In this document: positions 30,839 to 51,910 of the stretch, in pieces | Position numbering within the stretch: the stretch's first letter is position 1 | Layout of the letters: every line of letters starts with the position of its first letter | Assembly (NCBI GenBank): GCA_035455825.1 | Contig: DATIEJ010000171.1 | Location: 1-56,727, forward strand | Direction of reading: 5' to 3' | DNA: 56,727 nt | Origin: Rhodanobacteraceae bacterium | GTDB taxonomy: Bacteria > Pseudomonadota > Gammaproteobacteria > Xanthomonadales > Rhodanobacteraceae | Translations under genes and position numbers: made by a program | The notes under the pieces: generated by a model | Seen by the model: the letters and a program-made list of their open reading frames with translations, nothing else | Told to the model about the DNA's origin: nothing | Databases searched by the model: none

Positions 30839-30856
30839 ATCGGACCTAGGTCCCAT
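30839..30856 (+). promoter_or_regulatory. Regulon box 1 (ATCGGACCTAGGTCCCAT)
   Basis: 18-bp imperfect palindrome; TAGCCT 23 nt downstream; upstream of DUF2092 module 1. Confidence 0.75.
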
Positions 30857-30985
30857 ATCGCCGGCGCCGGGCGCCGGCGTAGCCTTGCAGGCTCGGCACC
30901 CATGCTTCGCGGAGATACCGGGTGTCATGCCGACGCGCGCCAGGCGCGGTGCCGATCCGCTCTTGCGAACGCGAGGAGAAACATC

Positions 30986-31780
30986 GTGGACAAATCACGC
31001 AACAGGACCGTATGGCTCCTTTCGGCATCGCTTCTGGCTCTGGCAGCGCCACTGGCCGCACAGGAAACCGCGGCGGGCGCCAATACCGAAGTCTCGCCCC
31101 AGGTCATCTCGCCCGATGCGCAGGCCGTCATCGACAGGATGACTGCGTACATGCGCACCTTGAAGACCTACTCGATCGACAGCAATGCCACGCGCGATGA
31201 AGTCGTGGCGTTCGGCTACAAGTTGCAGCACAACGAGCACTCGAAGGTGACCGTCCAGTTGCCGAACAAGCTTCGTGCCGAAATATCCGGCGACCTGCGC
31301 GACCGCACCGTCGTCTACGACGGCACGAAGATCGCGATCTACTCGCCGGATGATGACGTCTACGCGCGCACCACCGCGCCGGACAGCGTGCACAAGCTGA
31401 TCGGCAACCTGCTCGATGCCGGCGTCGAGATGCCGATGGTCGATGTGCTGTACCAGACCGGTACGGGCACGTTGACCGAGTCGGTGCGCGGCGGCGTGCT
31501 CGTCGGCGACTCGGAGATCGACGGCGCCGACTGCGATCACCTGGCGTTCCGGCAGCCCACGATCGACTGGCAGCTCTGGGTCGAGAAAGGCGACAAGGCG
31601 CTGCCGCGCAAGATCGTGATCACGACCCGCTACGAAGTTGGTGATCCCCAGTACCAGGCGACCCTGCGCTGGAATCTGAATCCGAAGATCGATGCGTCGA
31701 CCTTCACGTTCACGGCGCCGAAAGACGCGAAGGAAATTCCCTTCAGTAACCCTGCGGCAATCAATGGCGCCGCGCCGTAA
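30986..31780 (+). CDS. DUF2092 periplasmic protein (LolA-like fold), copy 1
   Basis: GTG start after GAGGAG; signal peptide; CDHLAFRQ..IDWQLWV..GD..LPRKIVIT, PQY..W, FTFTAP. Confidence 0.82.
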   Translation: MDKSRNRTVWLLSASLLALAAPLAAQETAAGANTEVSPQVISPDAQAVIDRMTAYMRTLKTYSIDSNATRDEVVAFGYKLQHNEHSKVTVQLPNKLRAEISGDLRDRTVVYDGTKIAIYSPDDDVYARTTAPDSVHKLIGNLLDAGVEMPMVDVLYQTGTGTLTESVRGGVLVGDSEIDGADCDHLAFRQPTIDWQLWVEKGDKALPRKIVITTRYEVGDPQYQATLRWNLNPKIDASTFTFTAPKDAKEIPFSNPAAINGAAP

Positions 31781-31790
31781 GGAGATCGAC

Positions 31791-32525
31791 ATGAGCAGCA
31801 AGCAAGCCAATTCGATTCAGAAGCGCACGTCGCGAGCGTCGGCTCTCTGCCTGACCGTCGCGGGTGTCGCGCTCGCGCTGGCATTCTCGGATGCCGATGC
31901 CGCTCGCGGCGGTGGTGGCGGTGGCGGTGGCGGGAGAGGCGGCGGTGGTGGTGGAGGCGGCGGTAAAATGGCCCAGAGTTCGGTCTCCGGTGCCAATCGA
32001 TCGGCCGGTGGCGGAGGCGGCGGTGCGAACCGCGGTGGTGGTGGCGGCGCGAGCGCGAACACGGCGAACCGCGGTGGTGGCGGCGCGAGCGCGAACACGG
32101 CGAACCGCGGCGGTGGCGGCGCCAGTGCCAACAGCGGCAACCGCGGCAACACCGCCAACACGGCGAATCGCAGCGGCAATGCGACCGGCAACAACGTCAA
32201 CTCCGGCAACAGGACCAACAACAACGTCGGCAGCGGCAACAACGTCAACAACGGCAACATCAATGTCGGCAACGACGTCAACGTCAACATCGATGGCGGC
32301 TACAACGGCTGGGGCGGTGGTTACCATCATCCGATTGCCGCGGCCGCCACGATCGGCGCGATTGCCGTCACGACTGCCGCGGTCGTCGGTTCCTACTACC
32401 ACACGTTGCCTGCGGGCTGCTCGACAGTTGTCATGAATGGCGCGACCTACAGTCAGTGCGGCACCGTCTATTACCAGCAGACGATGCAAGGCAGCGATCC
32501 GGTCTACGTCGTCGTCAATCCCTGA
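31791..32525 (+). CDS. Secreted Gly/Asn-rich low-complexity protein with C-terminal Cys-pair domain, copy 1
   Basis: Signal peptide ending ADA-AR; ANRGGGG(G)ASAN(T/S) repeats x3; NNVNNGNINVGNDVNVNID; YYHTLPAGC...CGTVYY. Confidence 0.75.
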   Translation: MSSKQANSIQKRTSRASALCLTVAGVALALAFSDADAARGGGGGGGGGRGGGGGGGGGKMAQSSVSGANRSAGGGGGGANRGGGGGASANTANRGGGGASANTANRGGGGASANSGNRGNTANTANRSGNATGNNVNSGNRTNNNVGSGNNVNNGNINVGNDVNVNIDGGYNGWGGGYHHPIAAAATIGAIAVTTAAVVGSYYHTLPAGCSTVVMNGATYSQCGTVYYQQTMQGSDPVYVVVNP

Positions 32526-32751
32526 CGCGCGCGCGGAAACGACTGAATCAGCAATCGCTCATTCTGCACCGCAGCCGTTCCGACTGCTGCGGTGCTGCAT
32601 TCGTGCCTGCCTCGTGCACGCGCGCGCCCCCGATCGCGGCAGCCGGCTGAACTGCCCGTTTTCATTCGGAGAAAACAAGCGCTACCGACGCCCCCTGACA
32701 AAGGGCTGACGACCGCCGGCAGGCCCGCTCGTGCTGCGGTGCGAGAGCGCC

Positions 32752-32769
32752 ATGGGATCAAGGTCCAAT
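32752..32769 (+). promoter_or_regulatory. Regulon box 2 (ATGGGATCAAGGTCCAAT)
   Basis: Same motif; TAGCCT 22 nt downstream; upstream of DUF2092 module 2. Confidence 0.75.
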
Positions 32770-32888
32770 TTCGCCGAAAGCCTTTGCGGCCTAGCCTCGC
32801 ACCCAGTGGCGGCGGTGCCAGCGGACCGCGTATGCTTTGCGCGCGGCAGGGTCGCCAGCCTGAACTGCGAATTTGACGAGGAGAAATC

Positions 32889-33689
32889 ATGAGCATGTCA
32901 CGTCATAGGTCAGTCGTCGTACCGTTGTTGTCAGCGCTACTGCTGCTTCTGGCAGTGCCGCTTGCCGCGCAAGAGACCGCGCCCGCTGCGGGCTCCCCGG
33001 CAATTGCGCAGGCAATCTCGCCGGAGGCGCAGGCGGTGCTCGACCGCATGACCGCCTTCCTGAAGACGCAGAAGACATTCTCGATCGACAGCCAGTCCAC
33101 GCGCGACGACGTCGTTGCGTTTGGCTACAAATTGCAGAACAACGAACATGCAACCCTGACCGCCCAGCTGCACGACAAGCTGCGTGTCGAGGTCTCCGGC
33201 GACGATCGGGAACGCCTGTTCATCTACGACGGCTCCACGCTCACGCTGTACTCGCCCGACGACGAAGCCTATTCGCAAGTCAAGGCGCCGGACACTGTCG
33301 GCAAGCTCGTCGACCGGCTGCTCGGCGCGGGCATCGAAATGCCGATGATCGACATGTTGTACCAGATTCATCAGGGATCGCTCACTGAAGCGGTGCGCGG
33401 CGGCGTGCTGGTCGGCGACTCGAACATCGATGGCACCGACTGCGACCATCTGGCGTTCCGCCAAGGCAACATCGACTGGCAGCTGTGGGTCGCGCAAGGC
33501 GACAAGCCGTTGCCGCGCAAGCTGCTGATCACGACACGCTACGAGGTTGGCGATCCCCAGTACCAGGTGACGATGCGCTGGAATCTGAATCCCAAGATCG
33601 ATAAATCGACTTTCGTATTTACGCCGCCGAAAGGCGTGAACAAGATTCCATTCAGCGATCCGGCAGCCCTCAGCGACGCGGCGCCGTAA
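32889..33689 (+). CDS. DUF2092 periplasmic protein, copy 2
   Basis: Close paralog of 30986-31780 (VVAFGYKLQ, EMPM.D.LYQ, CDHLAFRQ, RYEVGDPQY, WNLNPKID). Confidence 0.85.
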   Translation: MSMSRHRSVVVPLLSALLLLLAVPLAAQETAPAAGSPAIAQAISPEAQAVLDRMTAFLKTQKTFSIDSQSTRDDVVAFGYKLQNNEHATLTAQLHDKLRVEVSGDDRERLFIYDGSTLTLYSPDDEAYSQVKAPDTVGKLVDRLLGAGIEMPMIDMLYQIHQGSLTEAVRGGVLVGDSNIDGTDCDHLAFRQGNIDWQLWVAQGDKPLPRKLLITTRYEVGDPQYQVTMRWNLNPKIDKSTFVFTPPKGVNKIPFSDPAALSDAAP

Positions 33690-33703
33690 ACAGGAGACCG
33701 AAC

Positions 33704-34531
33704 ATGAACAGCAAACACGAAAATTCGCTCTCGAGTTCGGTGGGACGGCGCGTCGCGCTGATCTTGATCATCATCTGCTGCGCCCTGGTACTTGGAATTC
33801 CCGACCTCAGCGACGCACGCGGTGGACGTGGCGGTGGTGGCGGAGGGCGTGGTGGCGGCGGTGGCGGACGTGGCGGCGGCGGTTACAGCGGCGGCGGTGG
33901 GGGCCGTGCGCAGAGTTCGGTGTCCGGCGCGAATCGTTCGAGCTATGGCGGCAGCAGCAGCCGCGGCAGCAGCAACCGCGCCAGCGCGGGCACGAGCGAT
34001 CGCGGAGGGGGCAACCGCGCCAGTGCGGGCACCAGCGACCGTGGCGGCGGCAATCGTGCCAGTGCTGGCACCAGTGACCGTGGCGGAAACCGGGGCGACA
34101 GCAATCGAGGCGACGGCAACCGGGGCGACGGCAATCGCGGTGATGGCAACCGCGGCGACGGTAACCGTGGTGATCGTGGCGACATCGGCAGCGGCAACAA
34201 CATCAACAACGGCAACATCAATGCCGGCAACAACGTGAACGTCGACATCGATGGCGGCTATGGCTGGGGCGGCGGCTGGGGCGGCTACTACCACCCGATC
34301 GCGGCGGGCATCGCCATTGGCGCCGTTGCCGCGACGACGGCGGCCGTAATCGGCTCGTACTACTACACGTTGCCGCCCAGCTGCGCATCGTACTGGTATG
34401 GCGGCTACTACCATTGCGGCAGCGTTTATTACCAACAGACCTGGTCGGGTAACGACGTCGTCTACGTGGCCGTGGACGATCCGGCGAAATCAGGCGCCGC
34501 TCCACCGCCGCCTCCTCCGGCGCAGCCTTGA
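33704..34531 (+). CDS. Secreted Gly/Asn-rich protein, copy 2, with RGD repeats
   Basis: Paralog of 31791-32525; NRASAGTSDRGG(G) x3, seven RGD, NNINNGNINAGNNVNVDID, YYYTLPPSC..CGSVYY, Pro tail. Confidence 0.78.
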   Translation: MNSKHENSLSSSVGRRVALILIIICCALVLGIPDLSDARGGRGGGGGGRGGGGGGRGGGGYSGGGGGRAQSSVSGANRSSYGGSSSRGSSNRASAGTSDRGGGNRASAGTSDRGGGNRASAGTSDRGGNRGDSNRGDGNRGDGNRGDGNRGDGNRGDRGDIGSGNNINNGNINAGNNVNVDIDGGYGWGGGWGGYYHPIAAGIAIGAVAATTAAVIGSYYYTLPPSCASYWYGGYYHCGSVYYQQTWSGNDVVYVAVDDPAKSGAAPPPPPPAQP

Positions 34532-34589
34532 AGCGGGTAGGCGAAGCGTGCAGACAACAACAATCAAAACAGATACAGGAGCTCCGAAC

Positions 34590-35333
34590 ATGCGCAACAC
34601 CAAGAACGTGATGGCGAAGTTGCTACCGGCTCTGCTGTTTGCGGCAGCCCCGATCGGCGCGCTTGCCGAAGACTGGGATTGGTCGCTAACGCCTTACGCC
34701 TGGCTCCCGGCGGTCGGGACCGACATTCACATCGACGTTCCGCCGATCGACACCGGCGGCACGACCCAGTTTTCCGCCATCCGGCCGAAGCTGGGCTTCA
34801 CGATTCCGCTGCACCTCGAGGCGCAGGGTGATGAATGGGGTCTGCTTTCCGACCTGCTGTATCTGCCTGTTTCTGCGGAACGTCATAACCAGTTGTTTTC
34901 CACCGACACATCGCTCGATGCCGGAATCTTCGAGCTGGCTGCCGTCTGGAGTCCCGGCCCGGTTCGCCACGAGGGTTGGGAGCTCATCGGCGGCCTGCGT
35001 TATCTCTGGGCGTCGGTCGACTTTAAGCTGATCCCGGCCAATCCGGCGCTGCCGAGCGGCAAGATCAGCGTCGACAAGAGCTATCCCGACTTCATGCTCG
35101 GCGCGCGCTATACGGCCCGATTGACCGACCGTTGGGCGCTGACTCTGCGCGGCGATGGCTCGTGGGGCAGCACGGACGGCACGTATGGCGCCGACGCGGT
35201 GTTTACTTACGCGACGAGCAATGGTGCGTGGGTACTCGGCTACCGCTACCTGAGGCCGAAATTCAGCAACGAGGACCGCGAATTCAACGTGAAAATGTAT
35301 GGACCGGAGTTCGGCTATACGTTCAAGTTCTAG
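34590..35333 (+). CDS. Putative outer-membrane beta-barrel protein
   Basis: Signal peptide, WDWSLTPYAWLP, LIGGLRY, LGYRYL, C-terminal GPEFGYTFKF. Confidence 0.78.
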   Translation: MRNTKNVMAKLLPALLFAAAPIGALAEDWDWSLTPYAWLPAVGTDIHIDVPPIDTGGTTQFSAIRPKLGFTIPLHLEAQGDEWGLLSDLLYLPVSAERHNQLFSTDTSLDAGIFELAAVWSPGPVRHEGWELIGGLRYLWASVDFKLIPANPALPSGKISVDKSYPDFMLGARYTARLTDRWALTLRGDGSWGSTDGTYGADAVFTYATSNGAWVLGYRYLRPKFSNEDREFNVKMYGPEFGYTFKF

Positions 35334-35401
35334 ATGTGCACAAGTACAGGTGTGATCGCAACGGCGCACGCAACGTGCGCCGCTTGAATCCGGAGGTTCA
35401 T

Positions 35402-35827
35402 ATGCAAAAGATTTCAATGAAGGTTTCGCTGGCATGCGCGGCCTTGGCGTTTTCCGGAGCGGCACTGAGCCAGGCCCCTTCCGAGGCCGAACTGGCCGAA
35501 TGCAACAACATCGCGGTGCAGCAGAGCGGCTACAACCCCGCGAACCCGCCGCCGGCACCTACGGCGCAGGCCGCTCCGGTCACCGGCAGCGGATCGAGGG
35601 CCAGGGGCGCCGCAGCAGGAGCGGCCGTCGGTGCGATCGGCGGCAACGATGTCGGCAACGCCGCGGCAAAAGGCGCGGTCGTCGGCGGCGTTGCCCAGCG
35701 CAACCGCAACCGCGGTGCGGCAGCGCAAGCCAATGCATCGGCAGCGCAGCAGCAGCAGAGCGGGTCGGCAGCGTACGAGAGTGCGCGGCGCGCGTGCCTG
35801 CAGGCGAAAGGCTACAACGTGAACTAA
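35402..35827 (+). CDS. Secreted glycine-zipper protein with a Cys pair
   Basis: Signal peptide, ECNNIA, GAAAGAAVGAIGG..GAVVGG, RACLQAKGY; GGAGG RBS. Confidence 0.75.
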   Translation: MQKISMKVSLACAALAFSGAALSQAPSEAELAECNNIAVQQSGYNPANPPPAPTAQAAPVTGSGSRARGAAAGAAVGAIGGNDVGNAAAKGAVVGGVAQRNRNRGAAAQANASAAQQQQSGSAAYESARRACLQAKGYNVN

Positions 35828-35869
35828 AGTGCGAGCCTGCAATCCGTCGGGCCGTTACGGGAGGGGAAG

Positions 35870-36415
35870 ATGACGCTGCGATTCGCCACAGTCCGGAGCT
35901 TTTTCGTCGTAATGGCATTCGCCGGCCTCGTCGCCGGCTGCGGGCCGAGCATCAGTGTCCGCACCGACTTCCATCCGGGCACGAACTTCTCCGTCTACAA
36001 GACCGTAACGATCAGCGACGCCAAGACCGAGCTGGATCCGTTCATCGCAGAGCGGATCCGGCAGGCAGTCGCGACGCAACTCGCAGCCAAGGGAATCACG
36101 CGTGTGCCGAGCGACGGCGACCTGGTCATGCATGCGCATGTTCGCCTGCGCACCGACACGACGGTCAGCAGCTGGGGCGGCGGCTGGGGTTATGGCTACT
36201 ATGGCGGCGGCTACTACGGCGGCAACTATGTCGACGTACGCCAGGTCAGGGTAGGCACCCTCGTCGTCGACCTTGTCGATCGGGCGAAGGGCGAAGCGGT
36301 CTGGCGCGGTATTGCCGAAGGCACGATCGACCAGAACGCCACGCCGCAGGAGTCCGAAGCGCACATCAATGCGGCGGTCGAGAAGCTGTTCCGGGAATAT
36401 CCGCCGAAGAGTTGA
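35870..36415 (+). CDS. DUF4136-family lipoprotein
   Basis: Lipobox VAGC, NFSVYKT, GTLVVDLVD...VWRG, AVEKLF..YPP. Confidence 0.82.
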   Translation: MTLRFATVRSFFVVMAFAGLVAGCGPSISVRTDFHPGTNFSVYKTVTISDAKTELDPFIAERIRQAVATQLAAKGITRVPSDGDLVMHAHVRLRTDTTVSSWGGGWGYGYYGGGYYGGNYVDVRQVRVGTLVVDLVDRAKGEAVWRGIAEGTIDQNATPQESEAHINAAVEKLFREYPPKS

Positions 36416-36696
36416 TCGAATCCAGCGTGGCGCGTGCGTGAGGCCGTAATCGAATGCGCGCACTCGGAACGCCCGCGATGCTTCCGAGGCGTCGCAGCCG
36501 CAGCGGAGTGACGACAGTTCAATTCCGGGTGGACGCGGTATGGACGTCGACCGTCCGAATATGCGTGCAGGAGCAGTGCTTCTGATCCTGGAGTTGAACA
36601 GGCGGTTCGGCGGTGTAGTACGGATTGCCGGCGCGCCCACGGACGCGGCGCCGAGTCATCTGGCGCTGGCCGCGTCGATGCCCGCGAGCGTGACAG

Positions 36697-37077
36697 ATGG
36701 AACACGACATCCTGGCGCGTTTCGCGCAAGACATGGCCGACCGCCTGACCGGGCCGATGACGTTCCGCCTCGTCCTGCAGCCGGTGATGGCCATCATCCT
36801 GGCGGTCATCGACGGCCGGAACGATGCCAGGAACGGCAAGCCGCCGTACCTGTGGGCTGTATTGACGCAGCGCGGGCACCGTCTCGAATCGCTCAAGCAT
36901 GGCTGGAAAAGCATCGGCCGCGTCTTTCTGGTGGCCCTGGGCCTTGATTTCGTCTACGAGATCATCGGGCAACCGGCCGTGTATCCGGATGAGGCGATCA
37001 TCGTCGCCATCCTGCTTGCAATCGTGCCCTATGTGTTTCTGCGCGGGCTCGTGACGCGATGGGCGTCGCGAAGGTGA
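36697..37077 (+). CDS. Hypothetical membrane protein
   Basis: RLTGPMTFRLVLQPVMA, about 3 hydrophobic segments, LAIVPYVFLRG. Confidence 0.72.
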   Translation: MEHDILARFAQDMADRLTGPMTFRLVLQPVMAIILAVIDGRNDARNGKPPYLWAVLTQRGHRLESLKHGWKSIGRVFLVALGLDFVYEIIGQPAVYPDEAIIVAILLAIVPYVFLRGLVTRWASRR

Positions 37078-37096
37078 TCCGCGCGGATCGTGGTCC

Positions 37097-37114
37097 ATGG
37101 GGCCTAGGTCCAAT
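37097..37114 (+). promoter_or_regulatory. Regulon box 3 (ATGGGGCCTAGGTCCAAT), with an overlapping second degenerate site at 37083-37098
   Basis: Same motif; TATCGT 22 nt downstream; upstream of ompA. Confidence 0.72.
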
Positions 37115-37243
37115 GTCGCCGGCCCCGAATGATCGCTATCGTTGCAAGCCTTAATAACATTTTGTTAAAACAGGGGCTACCGCGGCCGCCGGCTTCGTGC
37201 GGCGCAGTCCTTGCGAGCGATATTCATGCAGAGGAGATCCCCG

Positions 37244-38323: not shown

Positions 38324-38345
38324 TCGACTCGCGGCAAGCAACACG

Positions 38346-38376
38346 AAAAAGCCCGGCGCAAGCCGGGCTTTTTTTT
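38346..38376 (+). terminator. Rho-independent terminator of ompA (possibly bidirectional)
   Basis: AAAAA-GCCCGGC-GCAA-GCCGGGC-TTTTTTTT. Confidence 0.93.
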
Positions 38377-38379
38377 ACC

Positions 38380-38745
38380 GCCAGGGATGGCGGGTACGCC
38401 GAAAATGCAGGAGCATTTTTCGGCGGGTGCATAGCAGCCCACTGTCCCGAAAAAACGAAGAGATGCTTTCGTGTACGCCGAAAATGCAGGATGCAATTTT
38501 CGGCGGGTGCATCTCAGCCCAGTGTCCCAAAAAAAGAAAGGAGGCCTCTGGCCCGGCCGCCGCCGAAAATGCAGGATGCAATTTTCGGCGGGTGCATCTC
38601 AGCCCAGTGTCCCAAAAAACGAAAGAAGGCCTCTGGCCTGGCCGCCGCCGAAAATGCAGGATGCAATTGGTGCATCGCAGCCCACTGTCCCAAAAAACGA
38701 AGATCCGCTGTGTATGCCGGAAATGCAGGAGCAATTTCCGGCGGG
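38380..38745. repeat. Five-unit degenerate tandem repeat (69-85 bp period) of GGA-loop hairpins
   Basis: Units start at 38397, 38476, 38561, 38646 and 38715; core CGCCGAAAATGCAGGA(T)GCAATTTTCGGCG, followed in units 1-4 by a GGTGCATCTCAGCCCAGTGTCCCAAAAAA-type segment. Confidence 0.9.
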
Positions 38746-38880
38746 CACCAGAAGGAAAAAGACTAAAAGTTTAAAAAGTCAAAAGATCTGAGGACCAAGG
38801 GTGTGGTTCAATCTCCTGCTCTCGCTTCAATCTCGGGTTCCGGCTTTTGTTCCCGTAGCACAGTTCAGGCGGAGGCTCGC

Positions 38881-38898
38881 ATGACCCCAAGGTCCAAT
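38881..38898 (+). promoter_or_regulatory. Regulon box 4 (ATGACCCCAAGGTCCAAT)
   Basis: Right half perfect; TATGCT 23 nt downstream; upstream of the asmA-like gene. Confidence 0.65.
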
Positions 38899-42501: not shown

Positions 42502-42656
42502 TAACCCACCCTTCAGGCGCCCCGACATTGCGCCTTGACAGGCGTGGCGAGTGCTGCAATGCTGGAAACAGCTGCCGCGTTTCCTCGCCTGCCCATCGCG
42601 CGTTCCTTGAAAAAGACGCAGCGCAGGCGAGAAGGCTTCTGGATCGGGGATCTGGA

Positions 42657-43271
42657 ATGGATGCGAGTAGAGGGACGGTTTACGTGATCGACGACGACGC
42701 GGACGTACGCGGCGGCCTGACTCGGCTGTTGCGCTCGGCCGGATGGATCGTCGATGCATACGCCGCGGCCCAGGACTTCCTCGAAAAAGCGACGTGCGAT
42801 GGGGTCGGCTGCATCCTGCTCGACGTCAGCATGCCGCGCATGAGCGGTCCGGAACTGCACGACCAGCTGCGCGCGCGCGGAAGCCGCCTTCCGGTGATAT
42901 ATCTGACCGGCCATGGCACCGTTTCGCTCGGTGTCAATGCAATGCGCCACGGTGCGTTCGATTTCATCGAGAAGCCGGCGGACGCCGACGCGTTGCTGCG
43001 CGTCGTCAACGACGCAGTAACCAAGCGCGAGCAGGCCTCGGCCCAGGAGAGCGAACTCGATGAACTTCGCCGGCGCCTTGCGCGCCTGTCTCCGCGCGAG
43101 CACGAGGTCATGAATCACGTGATCCAGGGCCGCTTGAACAAGCAGATCGCCGCGGATCTCAATATCGGCGTCAAGACCGTCAAGGTCCATCGTGGCCGCG
43201 TCATGGCCAAGATGAAGGTGCGCTCGGTCGCCCAACTGGTGCACCTCTGCGACGCGCTCGGCGCCGCATAA
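42657..43271 (+). CDS. FixJ/NodW-family response regulator (REC + LuxR HTH)
   Basis: VYVIDDD, LLDVSMP, LTGHG, FIEKP, LSPREHEVM...GRLNKQIAADLNIGVKTVKVHRGRVMAKM. Confidence 0.93.
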   Translation: MDASRGTVYVIDDDADVRGGLTRLLRSAGWIVDAYAAAQDFLEKATCDGVGCILLDVSMPRMSGPELHDQLRARGSRLPVIYLTGHGTVSLGVNAMRHGAFDFIEKPADADALLRVVNDAVTKREQASAQESELDELRRRLARLSPREHEVMNHVIQGRLNKQIAADLNIGVKTVKVHRGRVMAKMKVRSVAQLVHLCDALGAA

Positions 43272-43306: not shown

Positions 43307-43324
43307 ATGGGATCATGGTCCCAT
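43307..43324 (+). promoter_or_regulatory. Regulon box 5 (ATGGGATCATGGTCCCAT)
   Basis: Near-perfect palindrome extended by AT on both sides; TATCTT 23 nt downstream; upstream of the REC + sensor kinase genes. Confidence 0.78.
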
Positions 43325-43439: not shown

Positions 43440-43826
43440 GTGAGCGCGAGCGGGGGCCAGATCGTCCACGTTGTCGACGATGACGATGGCGTGCGAACGG
43501 GATTTGCGCGATTGTTGCGTTCGGCGGGAATCGATGTCCGCGCCTACCCGTCTGCCGATCGCTTCCTCGACGAGGTCGACAGCGTGGCGCCAGGCTGCGT
43601 CCTGCTCGACATCACGATGCCGGGAATCAGCGGTCCGGGGGCTCTGGAGCGCCTGAAGGGCAAGCGTGATTTGCTGCCGGTCATCGTCGTGTCGGCGCGC
43701 GACAGCGAGGCGGTCCACCGGCTCACGCACGAAGTCGGCGCCAGGATGTTCCTGCGCAAGCCGGTCGACGACCAGGCCCTGCTCGACGCAATCAACTGGG
43801 TGACCAAGGGTCCGGCCGAAGCCTGA
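43440..43826 (+). CDS. Single-domain response regulator
   Basis: VHVVDDD, LLDITMP, VSAR, FLRKP; GTG start after GGGAGA (alternative ATG 43392). Confidence 0.88.
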   Translation: MSASGGQIVHVVDDDDGVRTGFARLLRSAGIDVRAYPSADRFLDEVDSVAPGCVLLDITMPGISGPGALERLKGKRDLLPVIVVSARDSEAVHRLTHEVGARMFLRKPVDDQALLDAINWVTKGPAEA

Positions 43827-43908
43827 TTCCGATCCGGTTCACTGCCAAAGCCTGCGGTAGACTATCGACCGGGTGAAGCACGCCCATTTTTTTGCCTGAT
43901 TGGCGCCG

Positions 43909-46167
43909 ATGGACTGGATACACGCCGGCTGGACGGGGATGACGGTCGTCAGCTTGATGCTGGCGTTCGTCTACCTGTCAATCTGGGTCCGGCAGCGGCG
44001 TCTCGGCGTATACCTCACGTTTGCACTGTGCAGCCTCTCTGCGGCCGCGATCGCGATCTTCGAACTGTTCCTGATGCGCGCATCGACGCCGGAACTGTGG
44101 GCGCAGCTTCTGCGCTGGCTGCATGTTCCCCTGGCGGCGTTGCTGATCAATCTCGTGCTGTTCGTGCGCATGCAGTTTCGCGCATCCCGCCGCGGCTGGA
44201 CGGCGCCGCTGATCGCGGTTGCGCTCGCAGCGCTCGCGGCCAATTTCCTGACCGGCGTCAACCTCGACTTTCGTGAAGTCGCCGCGCTCGAGCCGATTCG
44301 CATATGGAATTCTGCGCCGATCGGCGTACCGGTCGGGGAATCCAATCCCTGGATCGTGCTCGGGACGATCAATGCGCTGATGATGATCGCGTTCCTGATC
44401 GATACGGTCGTCGTCGTAGACCGGCGCGGCAGCGCCGAGGAACGCCAAAACGTTTTTCTCGTGTGCGTGAGCATCATCGTCTTCCTGGTTGCTGCCGGCA
44501 CGTGGGAACTGGTCGTCAGTTCGGGGTTGATCGTGGCGCCGCTGCTGGTCGCGCCATCGTTTCTCGGAATTTCGCTCGTGATGGCCTACCTGATCGGCAG
44601 CGAGATACTGCGCGCCTCGGAAATGGCGACGAGCCTGGTGACGGCCGAAGCGCGCCTGCTCGAGACCGAACAGCAGATGGACCTGGCCGCAAGCGTGTCG
44701 GGCCAGGGTTTCTGGAGCTGGGACACGACCGGCACCGAGCCGTGGCTGTCGCCGACGGCGCGCTTCCTGCTCGGCATCGCGCCGGACGAAGTGTTCGCGT
44801 GGTCGACCTATCTGGAACGCGTGGCGCCGGAAGACCGCAGGCGCCTGAGCAGCGCGATCGAGGAGGCGATTCGCAGCGACGGAAATATCCATGTCGAGTT
44901 CCGGATCGCCGGTCCGGGCAAGGACGTTCGCTGGCTCATTGCCCTCGGCAAGATCCTGTTTACCCAGGATCACCTGCCGGCGCACAGCTACGGCGTCATC
45001 GTCGACACGACCGAGCGCCGCACGGCCGAAGAACGCTTTCGCCTGCTGGTCGAATCAATGCCGTCGGCCGTATTGCTGGTCAATGACCGGGGCGCCATCA
45101 CGTTCGGCAACAAGCAGGCGGAATCGATGTTCGGCTACACGCAGGAACAGCTGATCGGGATGGATGTCGAAATGCTGATGCCGCAGCGCTATCGCCACGG
45201 ACACGCGGACATGCGAAGCGTGTTTGCCCGCGAGCCGGCATTGCGCAAGATGGGCGCCGGAGCCGAACTCGTGGCGGAGCGCCGCGGCGGCGGCGCAATC
45301 ATGGTCGAGATCGGCTTGACTCCGATCCAGATCGGCCAGGAACATTTCACGATGGCCTCGATCGCCGACATCGGCGAGCGCAAGCGCATGGAACGCGAGG
45401 CGGCGCTGCAGCGAGACGAACTGGCGCACCTGTCGCGCGTGGCCTCGCTGTCCGCGCTGTCGAGCTCGCTCGCGCACGAGCTCAACCAGCCATTGACCGC
45501 GATCCTCAGCAATGCCCAGGCCGGCGCGCGCTTCCTCGCGCAGCAGCCGCCCGACACGCAAGAGGTTGCGATCAGCTTCACGAACATCGTCGACAACGCC
45601 AAGCGCGCCGGCGAAGTCATTCGCAAGTTGCGCAGCATGCTGCGCAACGAACGCACCGAATTCGTCCGCCTCGATATGGACGACGTCGTGCGCGAAGTCC
45701 TCCAGCTCCTGCGCAGCGATCTGATCGACCGGCGCGTCGAGGTCGCCCTCGAGCTGTCGCCAGACCTGCCGCCGGTAAAGGGCGACCGGATCCAGTTGCA
45801 GCAGGTGCTGCTGAACCTGATGATGAACGCGGCCGACGCAATGGGCAGCGTCGCGCACGCCCGCGTGCTCACCGTGCGAACGCTGCTCGCCGAAGACGGC
45901 GAGGTCGAAGTGCAGGTGGCCGACATCGGGCCCGGCATCCCCGAGCAGGACCTCGCGCGCATCTTCGCGCCGTTCGTATCAGGCAAGAGAGGCGGCATGG
46001 GACTCGGCCTTTCGGTCTGCGCGATGCTCGTGCAGGCGCACGCCGGCATGCTCTGGGCGACGAACAACAGCGGCGGTGGCGCGACGCTGCATTTCCGCTT
46101 GCCCCGGCATCCCGATGTCCCGGGTCCGAACTCATCCACGCGACTGGGGACCACAGCGCCTTCTTGA
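43909..46167 (+). CDS. Multi-TM PAS-PAS sensor histidine kinase (FixL/NodV-like)
   Basis: About 7 TM helices, two PAS domains, LAHELNQPL, QLQQVLLNLMMNA, GMGLGL. Confidence 0.92.
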   Translation: MDWIHAGWTGMTVVSLMLAFVYLSIWVRQRRLGVYLTFALCSLSAAAIAIFELFLMRASTPELWAQLLRWLHVPLAALLINLVLFVRMQFRASRRGWTAPLIAVALAALAANFLTGVNLDFREVAALEPIRIWNSAPIGVPVGESNPWIVLGTINALMMIAFLIDTVVVVDRRGSAEERQNVFLVCVSIIVFLVAAGTWELVVSSGLIVAPLLVAPSFLGISLVMAYLIGSEILRASEMATSLVTAEARLLETEQQMDLAASVSGQGFWSWDTTGTEPWLSPTARFLLGIAPDEVFAWSTYLERVAPEDRRRLSSAIEEAIRSDGNIHVEFRIAGPGKDVRWLIALGKILFTQDHLPAHSYGVIVDTTERRTAEERFRLLVESMPSAVLLVNDRGAITFGNKQAESMFGYTQEQLIGMDVEMLMPQRYRHGHADMRSVFAREPALRKMGAGAELVAERRGGGAIMVEIGLTPIQIGQEHFTMASIADIGERKRMEREAALQRDELAHLSRVASLSALSSSLAHELNQPLTAILSNAQAGARFLAQQPPDTQEVAISFTNIVDNAKRAGEVIRKLRSMLRNERTEFVRLDMDDVVREVLQLLRSDLIDRRVEVALELSPDLPPVKGDRIQLQQVLLNLMMNAADAMGSVAHARVLTVRTLLAEDGEVEVQVADIGPGIPEQDLARIFAPFVSGKRGGMGLGLSVCAMLVQAHAGMLWATNNSGGGATLHFRLPRHPDVPGPNSSTRLGTTAPS

Positions 46168-46238
46168 TTTCCGAACCGCAAGGAGGCGATAGTGGCGCAC
46201 AGGCGCCGCGCAGGTGGAGCGCACCAGTGTCAAACGCG

Positions 46239-47441
46239 ATGAAAACGGGATTGGCAGGGTCTCCACTGGCGGAGCCGCCGGACTTTTCGTTGATCCTCGG
46301 CGGGCCTCTGTATCAGCTGCTGCGGCGCGCGCACTTGTCCGGCGACGCGCTGGAATTGCTGACGCGGCGCGTGACCGTGCTGTCGCTGCTGACATGGGTG
46401 CCATTGCTGCTGCTTTCGGCTGCAGAAGGGCGCGCGTGGGGCGACAGCGTCAAGATCCCGTTCCTGTTCGACGTGGATGTGCATGCCCGCTTCCTGCTGG
46501 CGCTGCCTTTGTTCGTCGTCGCGGAAATCGTCGTCCACCAGCGCATGCGCCCGGTGGTCTCCGCGTTCTTGAAGCGCGGCCTGATTCCCGATGCAGGACG
46601 CGCGCAATTCGATGCTGCCATCGCTGGTGCGCTGCGCCTGCGTAACTCCATTGCGGCCGAATTGCTGCTCATCGCACTCGTCTACGGTGTCGGCGTACTC
46701 GTCGTCTGGCGGAACAGCGCTGCGATCGATGTGGCGACGTGGTACGCGGAAGCGGGGGGAGGGCGTTTGCAACCAACCTGGGCCGGCTGGTGGTTCGGTC
46801 TTGTCAGCCTGCCGATTTTCCAGTTCATCCTGTTTCGCTGGTATTTCCGGCTCGCGATCTGGGCGCGCTTTCTCTGGCAGGTTTCGCGGATCAATTTGCA
46901 GCTGATCCCCACGCATCCGGACCGCGCCGGGGGACTCGGTTTTCTTTCGGTCATCACGCAGGCGTTTGCGCCGCTGCTGGCCGGACAGGGCGTGCTGCTC
47001 GCCGGTGTGATAGCGAACAAGATCTTCCACGCCGGCGCGAAGCTGGTCGACTTCAAGATGGAGATCGTCGCGCTGGTTGGAGTGATGCTGTTTTTCGTCG
47101 TCGCGCCTCTGCTCGTCTTCGTTCCACTGATGGCGCGCGCCAAGCGCGCGGGTCTGAGCGATTACGGCGGTCTTGCCCAGCGCTACATGCGCGAGTTCGA
47201 CCACAAGTGGCTGCGCGGCGGTGCGCCGCCGGACGAAGCGCTGCTCGGCAGCGCGGACATCCAGTCGCTCGCGGACATGGGCAACAGTTTCGAAGTCCTG
47301 AAAGAGATGAAGCTGGTTCCGTTCGGCAAGGAAATGGTCATCCAGCTGGCCGTAATTTCGCTTCTGCCCGCGGCACCGCTGATCCTGACCGTGATTCCGC
47401 TGGCCGCCTTGCTCGACCGCTTCCTGCAAGTCGTCATGTAA
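46239..47441 (+). CDS. Hypothetical polytopic membrane protein
   Basis: FSLILGGPLYQL, PTHPDRAGGLGFL, LLGSADIQSLAD; many hydrophobic segments. Confidence 0.8.
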   Translation: MKTGLAGSPLAEPPDFSLILGGPLYQLLRRAHLSGDALELLTRRVTVLSLLTWVPLLLLSAAEGRAWGDSVKIPFLFDVDVHARFLLALPLFVVAEIVVHQRMRPVVSAFLKRGLIPDAGRAQFDAAIAGALRLRNSIAAELLLIALVYGVGVLVVWRNSAAIDVATWYAEAGGGRLQPTWAGWWFGLVSLPIFQFILFRWYFRLAIWARFLWQVSRINLQLIPTHPDRAGGLGFLSVITQAFAPLLAGQGVLLAGVIANKIFHAGAKLVDFKMEIVALVGVMLFFVVAPLLVFVPLMARAKRAGLSDYGGLAQRYMREFDHKWLRGGAPPDEALLGSADIQSLADMGNSFEVLKEMKLVPFGKEMVIQLAVISLLPAAPLILTVIPLAALLDRFLQVVM

Positions 47442-47528
47442 CCGGCGCGCGCAAGGCTGCACGCCCCACCGGAGGCGGGAAAAAGCGTACATTGACCGCC
47501 CGCGTCGGCGGAAAGGAAGGGCTCGAAC

Positions 47529-48089
47529 ATGGGCACTGCGCAACGTTTCCTGTGGATATTGCTGGCGTGGTTCGGCGCCGCCGGCATCGCCGGCGCGGCG
47601 AGCTACGAAGTCAACGGCGTGCATCTGGGTATGACCCAGGCCGAAGTGCAGGCGGTGTTCGGCGACAAGATCCAGTGTTCGGAGCGGACGCCGAGTGACA
47701 CCGATCCTGCCCAGGCGACTTGCGTGAGCGCGGCGTTTGCGCAGAAAAAAATCCTGTCCGACACGTTCGTCGGCCTGAAGACCGTGATCCGGTATCACGT
47801 TCTCGACGGGCACGTGGCGTGGATCAGTTTTCTCGGCCTTCCGTCGATGGCGTTCGACGATGTCGTGAAACGCATGGAGAAGACCTACGGCAAGGCCGAC
47901 GTTGCGAGCAAGGACATCAACATCGGCATCAAGTCGTCGGAAATGGTCAACAAGCGCGCGACCTGGCACAACGACGCCGGCGATGCGATCGTCTTTGACA
48001 AGTACACGCCCGGCAACCTCGATCGCTCCTACCTGAACTTCTACGGCAAAGACTGGCCGCAGAGCCTGCGACCCGCGCCGTTCGATTGA
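47529..48089 (+). CDS. Hypothetical secreted protein
   Basis: Signal peptide, YEVNGVHLGMT, Cys pair; GGAAGG RBS. Confidence 0.7.
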   Translation: MGTAQRFLWILLAWFGAAGIAGAASYEVNGVHLGMTQAEVQAVFGDKIQCSERTPSDTDPAQATCVSAAFAQKKILSDTFVGLKTVIRYHVLDGHVAWISFLGLPSMAFDDVVKRMEKTYGKADVASKDINIGIKSSEMVNKRATWHNDAGDAIVFDKYTPGNLDRSYLNFYGKDWPQSLRPAPFD

Positions 48090-48269
48090 GCGGCAGCGGA
48101 GCCGACTCCTCGCTGCGCGAGGCAAGCGCTGTAGGAGATGGCTGGCGAAAATCGCCTTGCGCGTTCAACCGCTTTCAGCCGAGGAAGAATTTCAAAGGCG
48201 AGCGCGCCCTCGACCGTCATCTGCTGCTGTTGCAACTCGGCTACGCGCTTCATCGACAGGAGGAAATCC

Positions 48270-49766
48270 ATGGAACAGGCGTCCAGCTTGGTTTTCGCTG
48301 CCGCGATGCAGGTCTGGCATCTCGTCCGGCGCCTGATCAAGCTCGCGATCACGGCGTTCGTGTCGATCGTGGTCGGCTTCACGCTCTATGCCGTGCTCGC
48401 ATTGCCCGATCTGAAGCCCTGGCATAGCGAACGCCTCGACGAAGAGTTCAACGCGCTGCGTGACGGGAATCTGGATTTCGACGGCTACCTGAAGCTCGAA
48501 GCGCGCCTGTTCGACGCGACGAGCGCAAAGATCGCGGCCTGGGATCATTCCGGCGAGTCCTACATCTACAGCCGTTTCAATCCGGACAGCAACGTCAGCC
48601 GGCTTGTCGAAGGCGCGCCGTTCAACCGTTCGTTTCGGTTGACCACGCCGGATCCGGCCGGTCACGCGCTGCTGGTGCATGGATTGAGCGATTCTCCGTA
48701 TTCGATGAAAGCGCTCGCCGAGGCGCTGCATGCGCGCGGCTTCGAGGTCACCGTGCTGCGCCTGCCCGGACACGGCACGCTGCCCTCCGCGATGACTCAG
48801 ATGAGCGCGGCCGACTGGACCGCGGCGGTGCGCATCGCCGCCCGCGACGTGGCGTCGCGCACGCCCTCCGGGCAGCCGTTCTATATCGGCGGCTATTCCA
48901 CCGGCGGCACGCTGGTCCTGCAGTACGCGCTCGACGCACTCGCGGACGCGTCGCTGCGCAAACCCGATCGCATCCTGCTCGTCTCGCCGGCAATCGAAGT
49001 TCCTGAAGTCGCGGTCGTCGCGAACGTGCTCGACATGCTCAGCATCGTGCCGTTGCCGGTGCTGCAGAAGGTGCGCTGGCAGGAGATCGGCGTCGAATAC
49101 GATCCGTACAAGTTCAATTCGTTTGCGATAAACGCGACGCGCCAGGTCAGCAGGTCGACGCGCGCACTGCAGGAATCCCTGGCGAGGGCAGTGGAATCCG
49201 GCCGCATCGAGCACATGCCGCCCGTGGTCACGTGGCAGTCCGTCGTCGATGCGACGGTCGGCGCGCAAGGCGTCGCCGACCTGCTCTACGCTCGCCTCAA
49301 CGGCGCCGCGCATCGACTCGTGATGTTCGACGTGAACCGGGCGGGCGCGGTTGGCAGTATTCAACGTCCGGGCGCTGGCGCGCTGATCGAACGGTTGTCG
49401 AAGGCGCCGCGCGGCTACACGCTCGACGTTGTCGCGAATACGAATACGCAGGGGCGCAGCGTCAGCGTTCGCCGCCTCGCGCCGGACGACAGCGTCAGCG
49501 TTCGCGATACAGGCCTGCAGTGGCCGGAAACACTGGTTTCCCTGAGCCACGTGGCGATGCCGTTTCCTCCCGACGATCCGGCCTATGGACTGAATCCCGG
49601 CAGCGGCCGCGATGGCATGCCGAGCATCGGCTCGTGGCTGTTCCGCGGCGAGAACGGCGCGGTCACGGTTTCCCTCGGCTCGCTTGTGCGCCCGCGCAGC
49701 AATCCGTTCTGGCAGCTGATCGACGAAGATGTTGCTGCGCTGGTCGAAGCCGATCGCGGAAAGTAG
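48270..49766 (+). CDS. Membrane-anchored alpha/beta hydrolase
   Basis: AGGAGG RBS; TM anchor; LVHGLSDSPY, LPGHG, nucleophile GYSTGG, SLSH. Confidence 0.87.
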   Translation: MEQASSLVFAAAMQVWHLVRRLIKLAITAFVSIVVGFTLYAVLALPDLKPWHSERLDEEFNALRDGNLDFDGYLKLEARLFDATSAKIAAWDHSGESYIYSRFNPDSNVSRLVEGAPFNRSFRLTTPDPAGHALLVHGLSDSPYSMKALAEALHARGFEVTVLRLPGHGTLPSAMTQMSAADWTAAVRIAARDVASRTPSGQPFYIGGYSTGGTLVLQYALDALADASLRKPDRILLVSPAIEVPEVAVVANVLDMLSIVPLPVLQKVRWQEIGVEYDPYKFNSFAINATRQVSRSTRALQESLARAVESGRIEHMPPVVTWQSVVDATVGAQGVADLLYARLNGAAHRLVMFDVNRAGAVGSIQRPGAGALIERLSKAPRGYTLDVVANTNTQGRSVSVRRLAPDDSVSVRDTGLQWPETLVSLSHVAMPFPPDDPAYGLNPGSGRDGMPSIGSWLFRGENGAVTVSLGSLVRPRSNPFWQLIDEDVAALVEADRGK

Positions 49767-49813
49767 CGTCGCCGCGAATCGTGCTTACCAGGCTTGCACT
49801 GCCTGATCACGCG

Positions 49814-50067
49814 CCCCTCACCCCGACCCTCTCCCCGCAAGCGGGGCGAGGGAGCTAGCGCGTCCAGTCGACTCGTCACTGTGATGCTGTTGTTGCTTCC
49901 CCTCTCCCCATCGAATGATGGGGAGAGGGTAGGGTGAGGGGCCGGGCTGTCCGACTGCAGGCGTGTCCATTCTTACCGGAAGCGAGCAGAGAACCCGCGC
50001 TTCCGTCGTCGTCGCTTGATCACGCACCCCTCACCCCAGCCCTCTCGGCGCTGGCGGGGATAGGGAG
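49814..50067. repeat. Cluster of three CCCCTCACCC..CCCTCTCCC..GGGAGAGGG REP-type elements (direct-inverted-direct)
   Basis: Copies at 49814-49853, 49899-49941 (inverted) and 50027-50067, between convergent genes. Confidence 0.85.
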
Positions 50068-50085
50068 TGAACTCGCACGTGCCTG

Positions 50086-51630
50086 TCAGAGTTGCGAATC
50101 CAGCGGCAGCCAGCTGAACATCCAGGCGATGAAGCGCTTGCTGCCGCTCGCCGGCGGCTCGTCGTGCAGGATTACCGGCTTGCCGTCGACCTCGTCGAGC
50201 CACACGATCTTGTTGTCCTGCAGTTCGAGCTTCCAGCTGTTTTTCAGCTGGGTCGCGAGTTCGTAGCGCGCGTGCACCTGGGCGGCGAACGCGGGATCGT
50301 CGATGATCACGCCGCATTCGGTGTTGATCCGCGCCGAACGCGGATCCATGTTGAACGATCCGACGAACGCGATGTGATCGTCGGTCACCAGCGATTTGGC
50401 ATGCAGGCTTGCCGTCGACTTGGTCGAATCTGCGCTCTTGCTGTGCGTTCCGAGCGACACGGGCTTGAGTTCGTGAATGTCGACTCCGGAGCGCAACAGG
50501 TCCAGCCGCCATTTGCTGTAGCCGCCATGCACCGAGGCAACGTCATTTGCGGCGAGCGAGTTGGTCAGCAGGTGCACGGCGACGCCGCGCTTCTCCATCG
50601 CCACCAGCTGGTCGGTGCCCGGACGCTTCGGCACGAAGTACGGCGAGATGATCACGGCCTCCTTCTGCGCGCCCTGCAGCAGGCCGGTGATCGTGTCGAG
50701 CATGACCTGCGGCGCGTTGTCTTCGCCTTTCGACTTGGTCGGATCATCCGTAACCAGCTTGACCTGCTTGCCACGCAGCATCGTGTCGAGGTGCAGCCCA
50801 ACCAGACCCTCGTCTCGCAGATTCAACAGGTGCTTGGCATAGGGCGTCGCGAGCGCCTGCTCCCTTTGAGCGTCCATCGCCGCGCGTTTCTTTGCCAGGT
50901 CCGCTTCGGGATCTTTCGGGTGAGCGAATGCCGAGATCGGCACCACGCTGTCGCTGTTCCAGAACTGATCGAACTGGGCGTCGGCGTCGGCAACCACGCG
51001 CCCCGCCATCAGCACGCCGAGATCGCCGAAATTGACCTCCTCGTGTGCGCCGAAGTACTCATCGCCGATGTTGCGGCCGCCGACGATCGCGAGCTGCGAG
51101 TCGGCAATCCACAATTTGTTGTGCATGCGATGATTGACGCGGCCGCCGCCGAAGATGAATTCCAGGCCGTTGCCGACGGTCGATCCGCGCGTGCGGAACG
51201 GGTTGAACACACGGATCTCGATCCGTTCGTGCGCATCGAGTATGGCCAGTTCCTCATCGTGCCCGCGGGCGGTCACGTCGTCGAGGATCACGCGCACGCG
51301 CACGCCGCGGTCGGCGGCGCGCAGCAGTTCGCGGCCGATCGCCCGGCCCGTGAGGTCGTCGTGCCACAGGTAGTACTGGGCATCGAGGCTGCGCCCGGCC
51401 TGCGCGATGGTGACCAGGCGTGCCGCAAATTCGTCTTCGCCGCTCCGGAACAAGCCATAAGCGGATTCGTCGGGTGCCAGAGCGAGTGACGCCGCTGCGT
51501 GATCGAGCTCGGTGCTGTCCCCGGGCGGCAGGAAACTCGACGGCGCGCCGCGCGGGAACGGAGCCGATGCGCAAGCGGCCAGTAGCAGCGCCGCCAGCGG
51601 GACGATCACACGAAAGCCGCGATGGGTCAT
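50086..51630 (-). CDS. Phospholipase D family lipoprotein (ClsC-like cardiolipin synthase)
   Basis: Lipobox LAAC; two HKD motifs (RMHNKLWIAD..GGRNIG; LHAKSLVTD..GSFNMDPRS). Confidence 0.9.
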   Translation of the reverse strand: MTHRGFRVIVPLAALLLAACASAPFPRGAPSSFLPPGDSTELDHAAASLALAPDESAYGLFRSGEDEFAARLVTIAQAGRSLDAQYYLWHDDLTGRAIGRELLRAADRGVRVRVILDDVTARGHDEELAILDAHERIEIRVFNPFRTRGSTVGNGLEFIFGGGRVNHRMHNKLWIADSQLAIVGGRNIGDEYFGAHEEVNFGDLGVLMAGRVVADADAQFDQFWNSDSVVPISAFAHPKDPEADLAKKRAAMDAQREQALATPYAKHLLNLRDEGLVGLHLDTMLRGKQVKLVTDDPTKSKGEDNAPQVMLDTITGLLQGAQKEAVIISPYFVPKRPGTDQLVAMEKRGVAVHLLTNSLAANDVASVHGGYSKWRLDLLRSGVDIHELKPVSLGTHSKSADSTKSTASLHAKSLVTDDHIAFVGSFNMDPRSARINTECGVIIDDPAFAAQVHARYELATQLKNSWKLELQDNKIVWLDEVDGKPVILHDEPPASGSKRFIAWMFSWLPLDSQL

Positions 51631-51685
51631 ACGCGAGGGCCCCCGGAAACTTGTGGGAGCCTATCACCATTTGGCCGCCCGTCCG

Positions 51686-51703
51686 GTAGGCCCAAGGTCC
51701 AAT
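51686..51703 (+). promoter_or_regulatory. Regulon box 6 (GTAGGCCCAAGGTCCAAT)
   Basis: Right half perfect; TACCTT 22 nt downstream on the + strand. Confidence 0.62.
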
Positions 51704-51892
51704 TACGCGCGGGTCCGTCATTCTTTACCTTGCCCGCCGTGGCGGTGTGCCACGCGTCAGTCGTTATTTCCGGCTCGAACATGCCGCTGGCAAGACAGTG
51801 CGCTGCGCGCTTCGATGCTTCGCCCACGGGACAGCCCGCAGTCTTGCGCAGCAGCGCGACAGGGGCAGGTCCATCAAATCGCTTCAGCTTCG

Positions 51893-51910
51893 ATGGGTCC
51901 AAGGTCCCAT
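51893..51910 (+). promoter_or_regulatory. Regulon box 7 (ATGGGTCCAAGGTCCCAT)
   Basis: Near-perfect palindrome; CACGAT 23 nt downstream; upstream of the decarboxylase. Confidence 0.75.

Follow-up and report, generated by a model that had tools for sequence, protein, structure and literature searches.

A conserved 18-bp palindromic box as the likely operator of a FixJ-family response regulator and a predicted envelope regulon in Rhodanobacteraceae

We analysed 56,727 nucleotides of DNA from a Rhodanobacteraceae bacterium (assembly GCA_035455825.1, contig DATIEJ010000171.1, here C171; the whole stretch is called the window), one contig of a 4.62 Mb genome with 65% GC that is 92% complete. The window holds seven copies of an 18-bp palindromic box together with the gene of a FixJ-family response regulator (42657..43271, + strand). 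Binding of the box by this regulator is a prediction that is well supported by comparison between genomes, and the box is likely to be its operator. Judged from the sequences, the regulator probably activates these promoters from about -43.5. We further propose, as something just short of an even call, that it belongs to a FixJ-family lineage of at least four phyla that is a two-component counterpart of EL222, with the same recognition helix and operator core, and whose conserved regulon serves envelope lipids and pH balance and takes in DUF2092, DUF3313, DUF3300/2950, Ysc84 and DUF3302 proteins.

The boxes were first listed in a reading made from the sequence alone (the sequence-only reading). 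When the window was read again, all seven 18-mers were exact on the + strand at 30839..30856, 32752..32769, 37097..37114, 38881..38898, 43307..43324, 51686..51703 and 51893..51910 (boxes 1 to 7). Their consensus is approximately RTDRGACC-AA-RGTCCMAT, and GGTCC[AC]AT occurs seven times on the + strand of the window, once in each box, and once on the - strand. A -10-like hexamer had been claimed for every box and was found for all seven, at gaps of 23, 22, 22, 23, 23, 22 and 23 nt: TAGCCT (30880-30885), TAGCCT (32792-32797), TATCGT (37137-37142), TATGCT (38922-38927), TATCTT (43348-43353), TACCTT (51726-51731, kept in three relatives) and CACGAT (51934-51939). Six boxes lie about 110-140 nt ahead of a start codon, close to the 115-140 nt first given, the exception being the box at 51686. 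Box 1 precedes a DUF2092 gene (30986-31780) and a Gly-rich gene, box 2 another DUF2092 gene (32889-33689) and a run of secreted or lipoprotein genes to 37077, DUF4136 among them, box 3 an OmpA-family gene (37244-38323) and box 4 an AsmA-family gene (39031-42444). Box 5 lies between the genes of the regulator and of a single-domain receiver (REC), a layout that is conserved across phyla. Box 6 marks the upstream one of two tandem promoters, 207 bp ahead of box 7, which precedes a decarboxylase gene.

The genome was scanned with a matrix built from the seven window boxes, using a threshold of at least 16 bits and gene calls that covered 86.4% of it. This gave 13 sites, seven in the window, four on contig C531 and one each on C193 and C443, so that six lay outside the training set. 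None of the 13 was centred inside a called gene. At 15 bits or less, matches fell more and more inside genes. At 18 bits or more the real matrix gave 19 strand-hits, compared with 0-11 (mean 3.4) for 20 column-shuffled matrices. A fifth, weaker site on C531 (17929) has the same promoter geometry; the C443 site is doubtful, with a gap of 24 or 26 and a geometry that differs. To measure conservation, six boxes were compared with their counterparts in three close relatives, 14 pairs in all. Box identity was 246/252 (98%); it fell to 55% in the upstream flank, 58% in the spacer and 53% in the downstream flank, and the five bases that follow the box stood at 87%.

Promoter geometry was also assessed in 57 non-redundant boxes from outside this genome, at loci picked by protein similarity and not by promoter features. 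YAnnnT stood 22 or 23 nt downstream in 40 of them (37 at exactly 22), where chance would give 2.0 for the two positions; on the opposite side of the box it was found in 2/57. At 104 metagenome sites T, A and T peaked at +23, +24 and +28 (39, 59 and 63 of 104), but these sites are no test of the -35, as the five bases following the box were set by the search pattern. Setting the hexamer at -12 to -7 places the box at -52 to -35, centred on -43.5 relative to the start sites so predicted. The -35 hexamers at the boxes, which begin at the last T of the box, are poor and variable; TTACGC is the hexamer of boxes 4 and 6 and of the site C531:27478. The sequence-only reading had pointed to NWCGC directly 3' of the box, and this stands for six of the seven window boxes (the box at 51893 has TGCGG) but not as a general feature. 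Because CGC follows just 3/57 outside boxes, NWCGC is a local -35 variant of this organism's own lineage.

This arrangement resembles that of NarL, which activates yeaR from -43.5 through the RNA polymerase alpha subunit's C-terminal domain (alphaCTD) bound in the minor groove between its monomers, with sigma region 4 untouched (PMC10853779). The box centre is A/T, mostly AA read in the promoter direction, and would suit an alphaCTD contact, while the nearly invariant spacing suits contact by an activator. Comparison supports the class II activator geometry claimed for the boxes, with the qualification that the position is near -43.5, the 'non-canonical class II' of NarL at yeaR, and not the -41.5 of the CRP type.

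The regulator has a receiver and a LuxR-type helix-turn-helix (HTH) domain (Pfam Response_reg and GerE), with intact phospho-site residues (D12, D13, D56, T84, K106) and the recognition helix GVKTVKVHRGRVM, which contains K173 and K176 (VKTVK). Its nearest named relatives are from Rudaea metagenome-assembled genomes (92-93%), which makes a Rudaea-like organism the probable source of the window. We took 130 distinct FixJ-like HTH sequences with loci from protein searches, excluded pattern-fetched loci and our own genome, and scored 1.5 kb on each side of the regulator with a matrix from the 13 own-genome sites only. A box of at least 18 bits was present beside 31/53 regulators with a K-T-x-K helix (K-type) versus 0/77 others, including 0/40 with the NodW/StyR-type helix E[IVM]TxK and 0/20 with the FixJ/TtrR-type helix xTxE; when three near relatives were removed, the former value was 28/50. 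These results support the earlier prediction of the FixJ-like regulator at 42657 as box binder. The box-bearing K-type cases were spread over the class Desulfobacteria (6/9), Acidobacteriota (4/6), Burkholderiaceae (10/14), Verrucomicrobiota (1/3), named GTDB loci (7/10), our own order (2/4) and plasmids (1/3), with 0/4 in a Pseudomonadota sample. The pairing occurs in Gamma- and Betaproteobacteria, Desulfobacteria, Acidobacteriota and Verrucomicrobiota. At 14 bits or more, 24/39 boxes followed the regulator by no more than 200 nt and shared its strand.

Within our own genome the 42657 protein is the only FixJ-type protein with a K-T-x-K helix. Its gene has no box of its own; a likely box-independent sigma70 promoter (TTGACA-17-AATGCT, 42535..42563, + strand) is kept in three relatives. 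Among a sample of 300 genomes of the order, exact pattern matches were found in five, four of which (G064, G060, G251, G243) have a K-type regulator beside the box; the fifth (G162, 77% complete) has the box-REC-kinase part. The box is absent from two 99%-complete genomes of the genus to which ours belongs, and these gave no regulator match or one weak one. The strict pattern was found in 13 of 400 Pseudomonadota genomes besides our own, mostly singly and near the control level; we do not count this as support, and the system is patchy in Pseudomonadota. Boxes whose right half has the variant GGCC (L063, L064, L065, L237, L358) stand beside regulators with HRSR or GRMM helix residues. These are too few cases for more than a hint that protein and DNA may co-vary. 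Sinorhizobium loci have a related regulator and similar target types with only weak variant boxes.

Several observations weigh against the assignment or narrow it. No box of at least 18 bits was found within 1.5 kb of 22/53 K-T-x-K regulators; some of these have boxes farther off (L101), variant boxes (Sinorhizobium) or other helix types (Sutterella). Because most box-bearing regulators fall in one broad group of a tree made by a quick method (124 rows, support 89), the pairing is one lineage conserved with its operator and not many independent events. In three genomes with one-mismatch sites (G186, G221, G179) no such regulator was found. A NarL-type protein on C281 also carries K-T-V-K, in the helix EKTVKTHVSNIL. 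The bare 12-bp core of the operator, as known for EL222, occurs 324 times in the genome; the flanks must therefore add specificity, and this is left unexplained by the EL222 data. Finally, the sensor domains differ between lineages, and a single signal may not apply to all of them.

Among the solved structures compared, the helix of EL222 (a LOV-HTH protein of Erythrobacter litoralis), SEKTVKMHRGLVM, is nearly the same as that of the regulator. The 12-bp operator consensus of EL222 is RGNCYWWRGNCY (PMC10521638), and it fits box positions 4-15 in 43/57 outside boxes and 7/13 own boxes, the other own boxes departing in the left half. An 18-bp EL222 site engineered against the luxI -35 activates in Escherichia coli, and one -35 activated in this way is TTACGC (PMC5001607), the same hexamer as at boxes 4 and 6. 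The two systems differ in that EL222 is a one-component blue-light sensor with a LOV input, whereas the 42657 protein has an N-terminal REC and a kinase, and in that conserved flanks (RTD...MAT) and a fixed right-half T come on top of the core in the box. NarL shares the LuxR-type HTH family, and at E. coli yeaR and ogt one dimer site lies at -43.5 or -44.5, just upstream of a weak -35 (PMC10853779). NarL, however, reads a 7-2-7 site with Lys188, Val189 and Lys192; the 42657 regulator has Gly/Ala at the Lys192 position and the extra K173 before it, and signal and targets differ.

The closest whole-protein matches of the regulator are StyR (1yio, E 1e-46) and FixJ (5xso). FixJ, StyR and TodT had been put forward as the precedent for the box, which does not hold at the level of sequence: neither the FixJ-type helix (xRTxE) nor the StyR/TodT/NodW type (E[IV]TVK) is that of the regulator, regulators with these helices lack the box as given above, and EL222 is the better precedent. 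The unit shares the lone receiver with FixL/FixJ and has a seven-transmembrane (7TM) input in place of FixL's, but FixL/FixJ proper is rejected by scores below the NCBIfam cut-offs (FixJ 210 versus 255; FixL 288 versus 850). DosR/DevR of Mycobacterium tuberculosis has the helix AEKTVKN, in which Lys179 and Lys182, the equivalents of K173 and K176, read bases (PMC4082495, PMC5861037). It is of the NarL type (E 6e-8 to the HTH profile), its Asn183 is replaced by Val in the 42657 regulator, and it has GAF-haem sensors and other targets. The operator core of DosR is probably a similar palindrome. In E. coli, the acid-resistance system EvgS/EvgA combines a NarL/FixJ-family regulator and a palindromic box with decarboxylase/antiporter and efflux outputs; it is an analogy only, as the match to NF007419 is 49 bits against a cut-off of 251 and helix and sensor differ. 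The lxa low-oxygen regulon of Burkholderia cenocepacia also clusters stress genes, behind the FNR-like motif TGA-N6-TCA (PMC3721108), which bears no relation to the box; no such motif with up to one mismatch lies within 250 nt of the 13 own boxes, and a perfect site lies upstream of the regulator only. Burkholderia BiofilmReg (PMC5192318) was rejected because its regulator is of the OmpR type.

The genes run in the order regulator, box 5, lone receiver and kinase. The lone receiver (43440..43826, + strand) has the phospho-site residues and is a predicted feedback element. The sensor kinase (43909..46167, + strand) reads 7TM (HisKA_7TM-like)-PAS-PAS-HisKA (His523)-HATPase, and its core is FixL-like; PAS-B is FixL/DosP-like, with His432 kept and Ala452 at the distal Arg position. 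An unannotated membrane protein gene (46227..47441, + strand) recurs beside the regulator in other genomes. On C531 lies a second box-REC-kinase unit, with no DNA-binding regulator beside it; its kinase is 48% identical to that of the window and has the distal Arg. The N-terminus of the window kinase was predicted to fold into seven helices, the fourth of which is followed by a hairpin (predicted local distance difference test score 93 from a 26-sequence alignment, compared with a poor 54 from the single sequence). HisKA_7TM (PF16927) is matched by 10/26 homologues at E<=0.1 (best 1e-6) and not by the window kinase itself. The fold matches only generic 7TM proteins, and the N-terminal sequence had no match among plasmids or the sequences of solved structures. 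A microbial rhodopsin sensor, similar in fold (Z 16.9, root-mean-square deviation 4.0, 211 aligned), was rejected because the last transmembrane helix lacks the Lys that would bind retinal. In the 7TM alignment Glu52 (helix 2) is nearly invariant, along with Trp8, Trp26, Trp148, Arg172 and Pro211; these residues could possibly form a protonation or ligand site. The partner kinases examined in Burkholderiaceae are PAS kinases, and the partner in S. medicae has a different input; by sequence, regulator, box and targets appear conserved while the sensor varies between lineages.

In the circuit that we propose, the 7TM-PAS-PAS kinase would phosphorylate Asp56 of the regulator, which would then dimerise and read both half-sites with its EL222-like helix (K173, K176). 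As with NarL at yeaR, it would recruit RNA polymerase via alphaCTD, with the A/T box centre as the contact, and so rescue the poor -35. Box 5 would raise the kinase, a positive feedback, and the lone receiver, a likely phosphate sink; that it drives the REC and kinase genes was also the earlier prediction, and the regulator-box-REC arrangement conserved across phyla fits it. The C531 unit may feed the same 42657 regulator. The outputs would be the handling of envelope lipids and lipoproteins and the balance of ions and pH.

The predicted targets in the window are the REC and kinase genes themselves, two DUF2092 units, OmpA, AsmA, and the decarboxylase with its antiporter. DUF2092 is LolA-related (PMC4520260). 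The decarboxylase gene is of the Orn/Lys/Arg family (52046..54865, + strand; pyridoxal phosphate lysine motif at K579), and the next gene (54990..56690, + strand) is of the aspartate-alanine antiporter family (TIGR03802, 644 bits, cut-off 547). Comparison supports the predicted co-regulation of the targets listed earlier, but that list was too short, since the regulon also reaches C531 (one gene each for DUF3313, a K channel and a Cys-rich secreted protein) and C193 (a flavin mononucleotide reductase). In other genomes 197 box-proximal open reading frames formed 105 clusters, of which the two largest are receiver- or regulator-like and include mis-called frames. Of 70 cluster representatives scanned, 26 had no Pfam match; the others included Ysc84, AsmA, PqiA, lipocalin, NlpE, cis-trans isomerase, OmpA, OprB, DUF1254, GltS, an ion channel, VIT1, PPK2, DUF3141, enolase and HypC. 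Genes for pH and ions stand behind boxes in Paraburkholderia phenoliruptrix (a cation:proton antiporter and a TrkA-C antiporter) and Paraburkholderia PREW-6R (NhaA and GltS). These two are cultured carriers, the former with five boxes within 22 kb on its symbiotic plasmid, as are Caballeronia insecticola and Eleftheria terrae. The loci lie at about 58-82 kb of NC_018696 in P. phenoliruptrix BR3459a and at about 638.7-641.2 kb of plasmid p1, NC_021289, in C. insecticola. The earlier label of an envelope/stress regulon fits these targets.

Some gene sets near boxes are described here in their own right. On C531 (6955-18712, L001) four boxes are interleaved with three DUF3313 genes, a multihaem-TPR protein, an aquaporin, a carbonic anhydrase and a DUF3302-HlyD-OEP efflux unit. 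In PREW-6R (L360, 21163-31939) a box stands at the head of genes for Ysc84, a glycine-zipper protein and an RND efflux unit, together with pqiABC-like genes. After each DUF2092 gene of the window lies a gene for a secreted Gly/Asn-rich low-complexity protein (31791-32525 and 33704-34531) with a weak DUF6515-like C-terminus, and C. insecticola has a similar pair; the LolA-like DUF2092 protein and its neighbour are possibly chaperone and client.

As to the signal, acid or ionic stress at the membrane is our first, tentative choice. Decarboxylase/antiporter pairs and cation-proton antiporters are standard parts of acid defence, and we prefer this signal because such genes are found repeatedly right behind boxes. 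Most of the remaining probability goes to general envelope or stationary-phase stress. Alternatively, the same regulon might respond to low oxygen sensed by the FixL/DosP-like PAS domain, its regulator gene being fed by FNR; this we regard as unlikely. FixL and DosP are among the best solved matches of PAS-B, and 8/10 distinct PAS-B matches near box-bearing regulators keep the proximal His; the distal Arg, however, is present in only 3/10 and is Ala in the window kinase, and several orthologous kinases lack PAS-B. A perfect FNR-type palindrome, TTGATCTGAATCAA, lies upstream of the regulator (42488-42501), and the genome holds 12 such perfect sites, every one intergenic; yet this site is not kept in three relatives and is found upstream of only 3/58 K-type regulators, two of them the same locus. 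DUF3141, PPK2, HypC and enolase among targets elsewhere, and the induction of DUF3300/DUF2950 in nodules (PMC4653623), count for low oxygen. Against it, none of the 70 box-proximal representatives scanned was an oxidase or nitrate-respiration gene.

Other readings concern the boxes themselves. Repression by the bound regulator, lifted by the kinase signal, is very unlikely: the box touches the -35 hexamer and EL222 can repress if sited over the promoter core (PMC5001607), but against this stand -35 hexamers of poor and variable sequence, a spacing that hardly varies (exactly 22 nt in most outside boxes) and a scan of 29500-49000 that found no consensus sigma70 promoter. Slightly less likely still is that the boxes are real operators but serve a different protein, for example the NarL-type regulator of C281. 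Its helix shares K-T-V-K, and the similar helix of DosR contacts bases through Lys179 and Lys182 (PMC4082495, PMC5861037); on the other side, C281 has no site of at least 16 bits, the box travels with the FixJ-type gene over four phyla and usually lies directly behind it, and the other two genes of the unit, REC and kinase, have no DNA-binding domain. Repetitive or mobile-element copies or chance matches have a negligible probability. Other intergenic repeats do exist in the window, but the flanks of different boxes are unrelated, the spacing to the -10 is fixed, orthologous boxes are far more conserved than their flanks, and there is no Rfam match; the genome scan and the conservation in relatives effectively refute this reading. 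Activation by the 42657 regulator is the reading that we prefer.

Other features of the window lie around the boxes or apart from them. Tandem box-promoters 206-224 bp apart occur at two places (window 51686/51893 and C531 17929/17705). Both pairs are conserved in a relative, and no obvious gene lies between the promoters. A small RNA was looked for between boxes 6 and 7, where no Rfam match was found and the alignment has indels. Divergent from box 6 is a PLD/cardiolipin-synthase-like gene (50086-51630), toward which TAGGCT lies at gap 22 on the reverse strand, a spacing that three relatives do not share. Patatin-Omp85 and outer-membrane barrel genes (27452-30671) diverge from box 1, which has no -10 at the fixed gap on the strand toward them; patatin recurs in related clusters of other genomes. 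An 85-bp tandem repeat of about 4.4 copies (38394-38745; 19 BLAST hits, 9 contigs) stands right behind the ompA terminator, and elements like repetitive extragenic palindromes (49810-50060; 12 hits, 10 contigs) lie between convergent genes. An RsbR/S/T-like stressosome cluster (18499-23995) with a SpoIIE phosphatase and two kinases has no boxes; ahead of it are a TonB receptor, a YfiR-like protein and a CHASE8 hybrid kinase. Positions 1-13776 hold a LigD primase-polymerase, Ku, three T2SSE/PilT-type ATPases and an MrfA-type helicase.

Activators of the NarL/FixJ family at -43.5 are already known as a kind, and so, for EL222, is the operator core. In literature searches that covered few subscription journals, we found no paper on this regulator lineage, the 18-bp box or the regulon, and the matches listed included no natural two-component counterpart of EL222. 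If our proposal is true, a widespread regulator subfamily that is now labelled 'response regulator' or mislabelled FixJ/FixL acquires an operator, the geometry of its promoters and a list of targets, and a one-residue helix rule, Lys just before the conserved Thr, tells it from look-alike NodW/StyR proteins. The natural promoters should respond to EL222 in blue light, which would make the regulon switchable for probing its DUF proteins, and cross-talk would be possible if EL222 were used in such hosts. Many envelope genes of unknown function would be grouped under one predicted controller, and one knockout, in Caballeronia insecticola or Paraburkholderia phenoliruptrix, would test those genes together.

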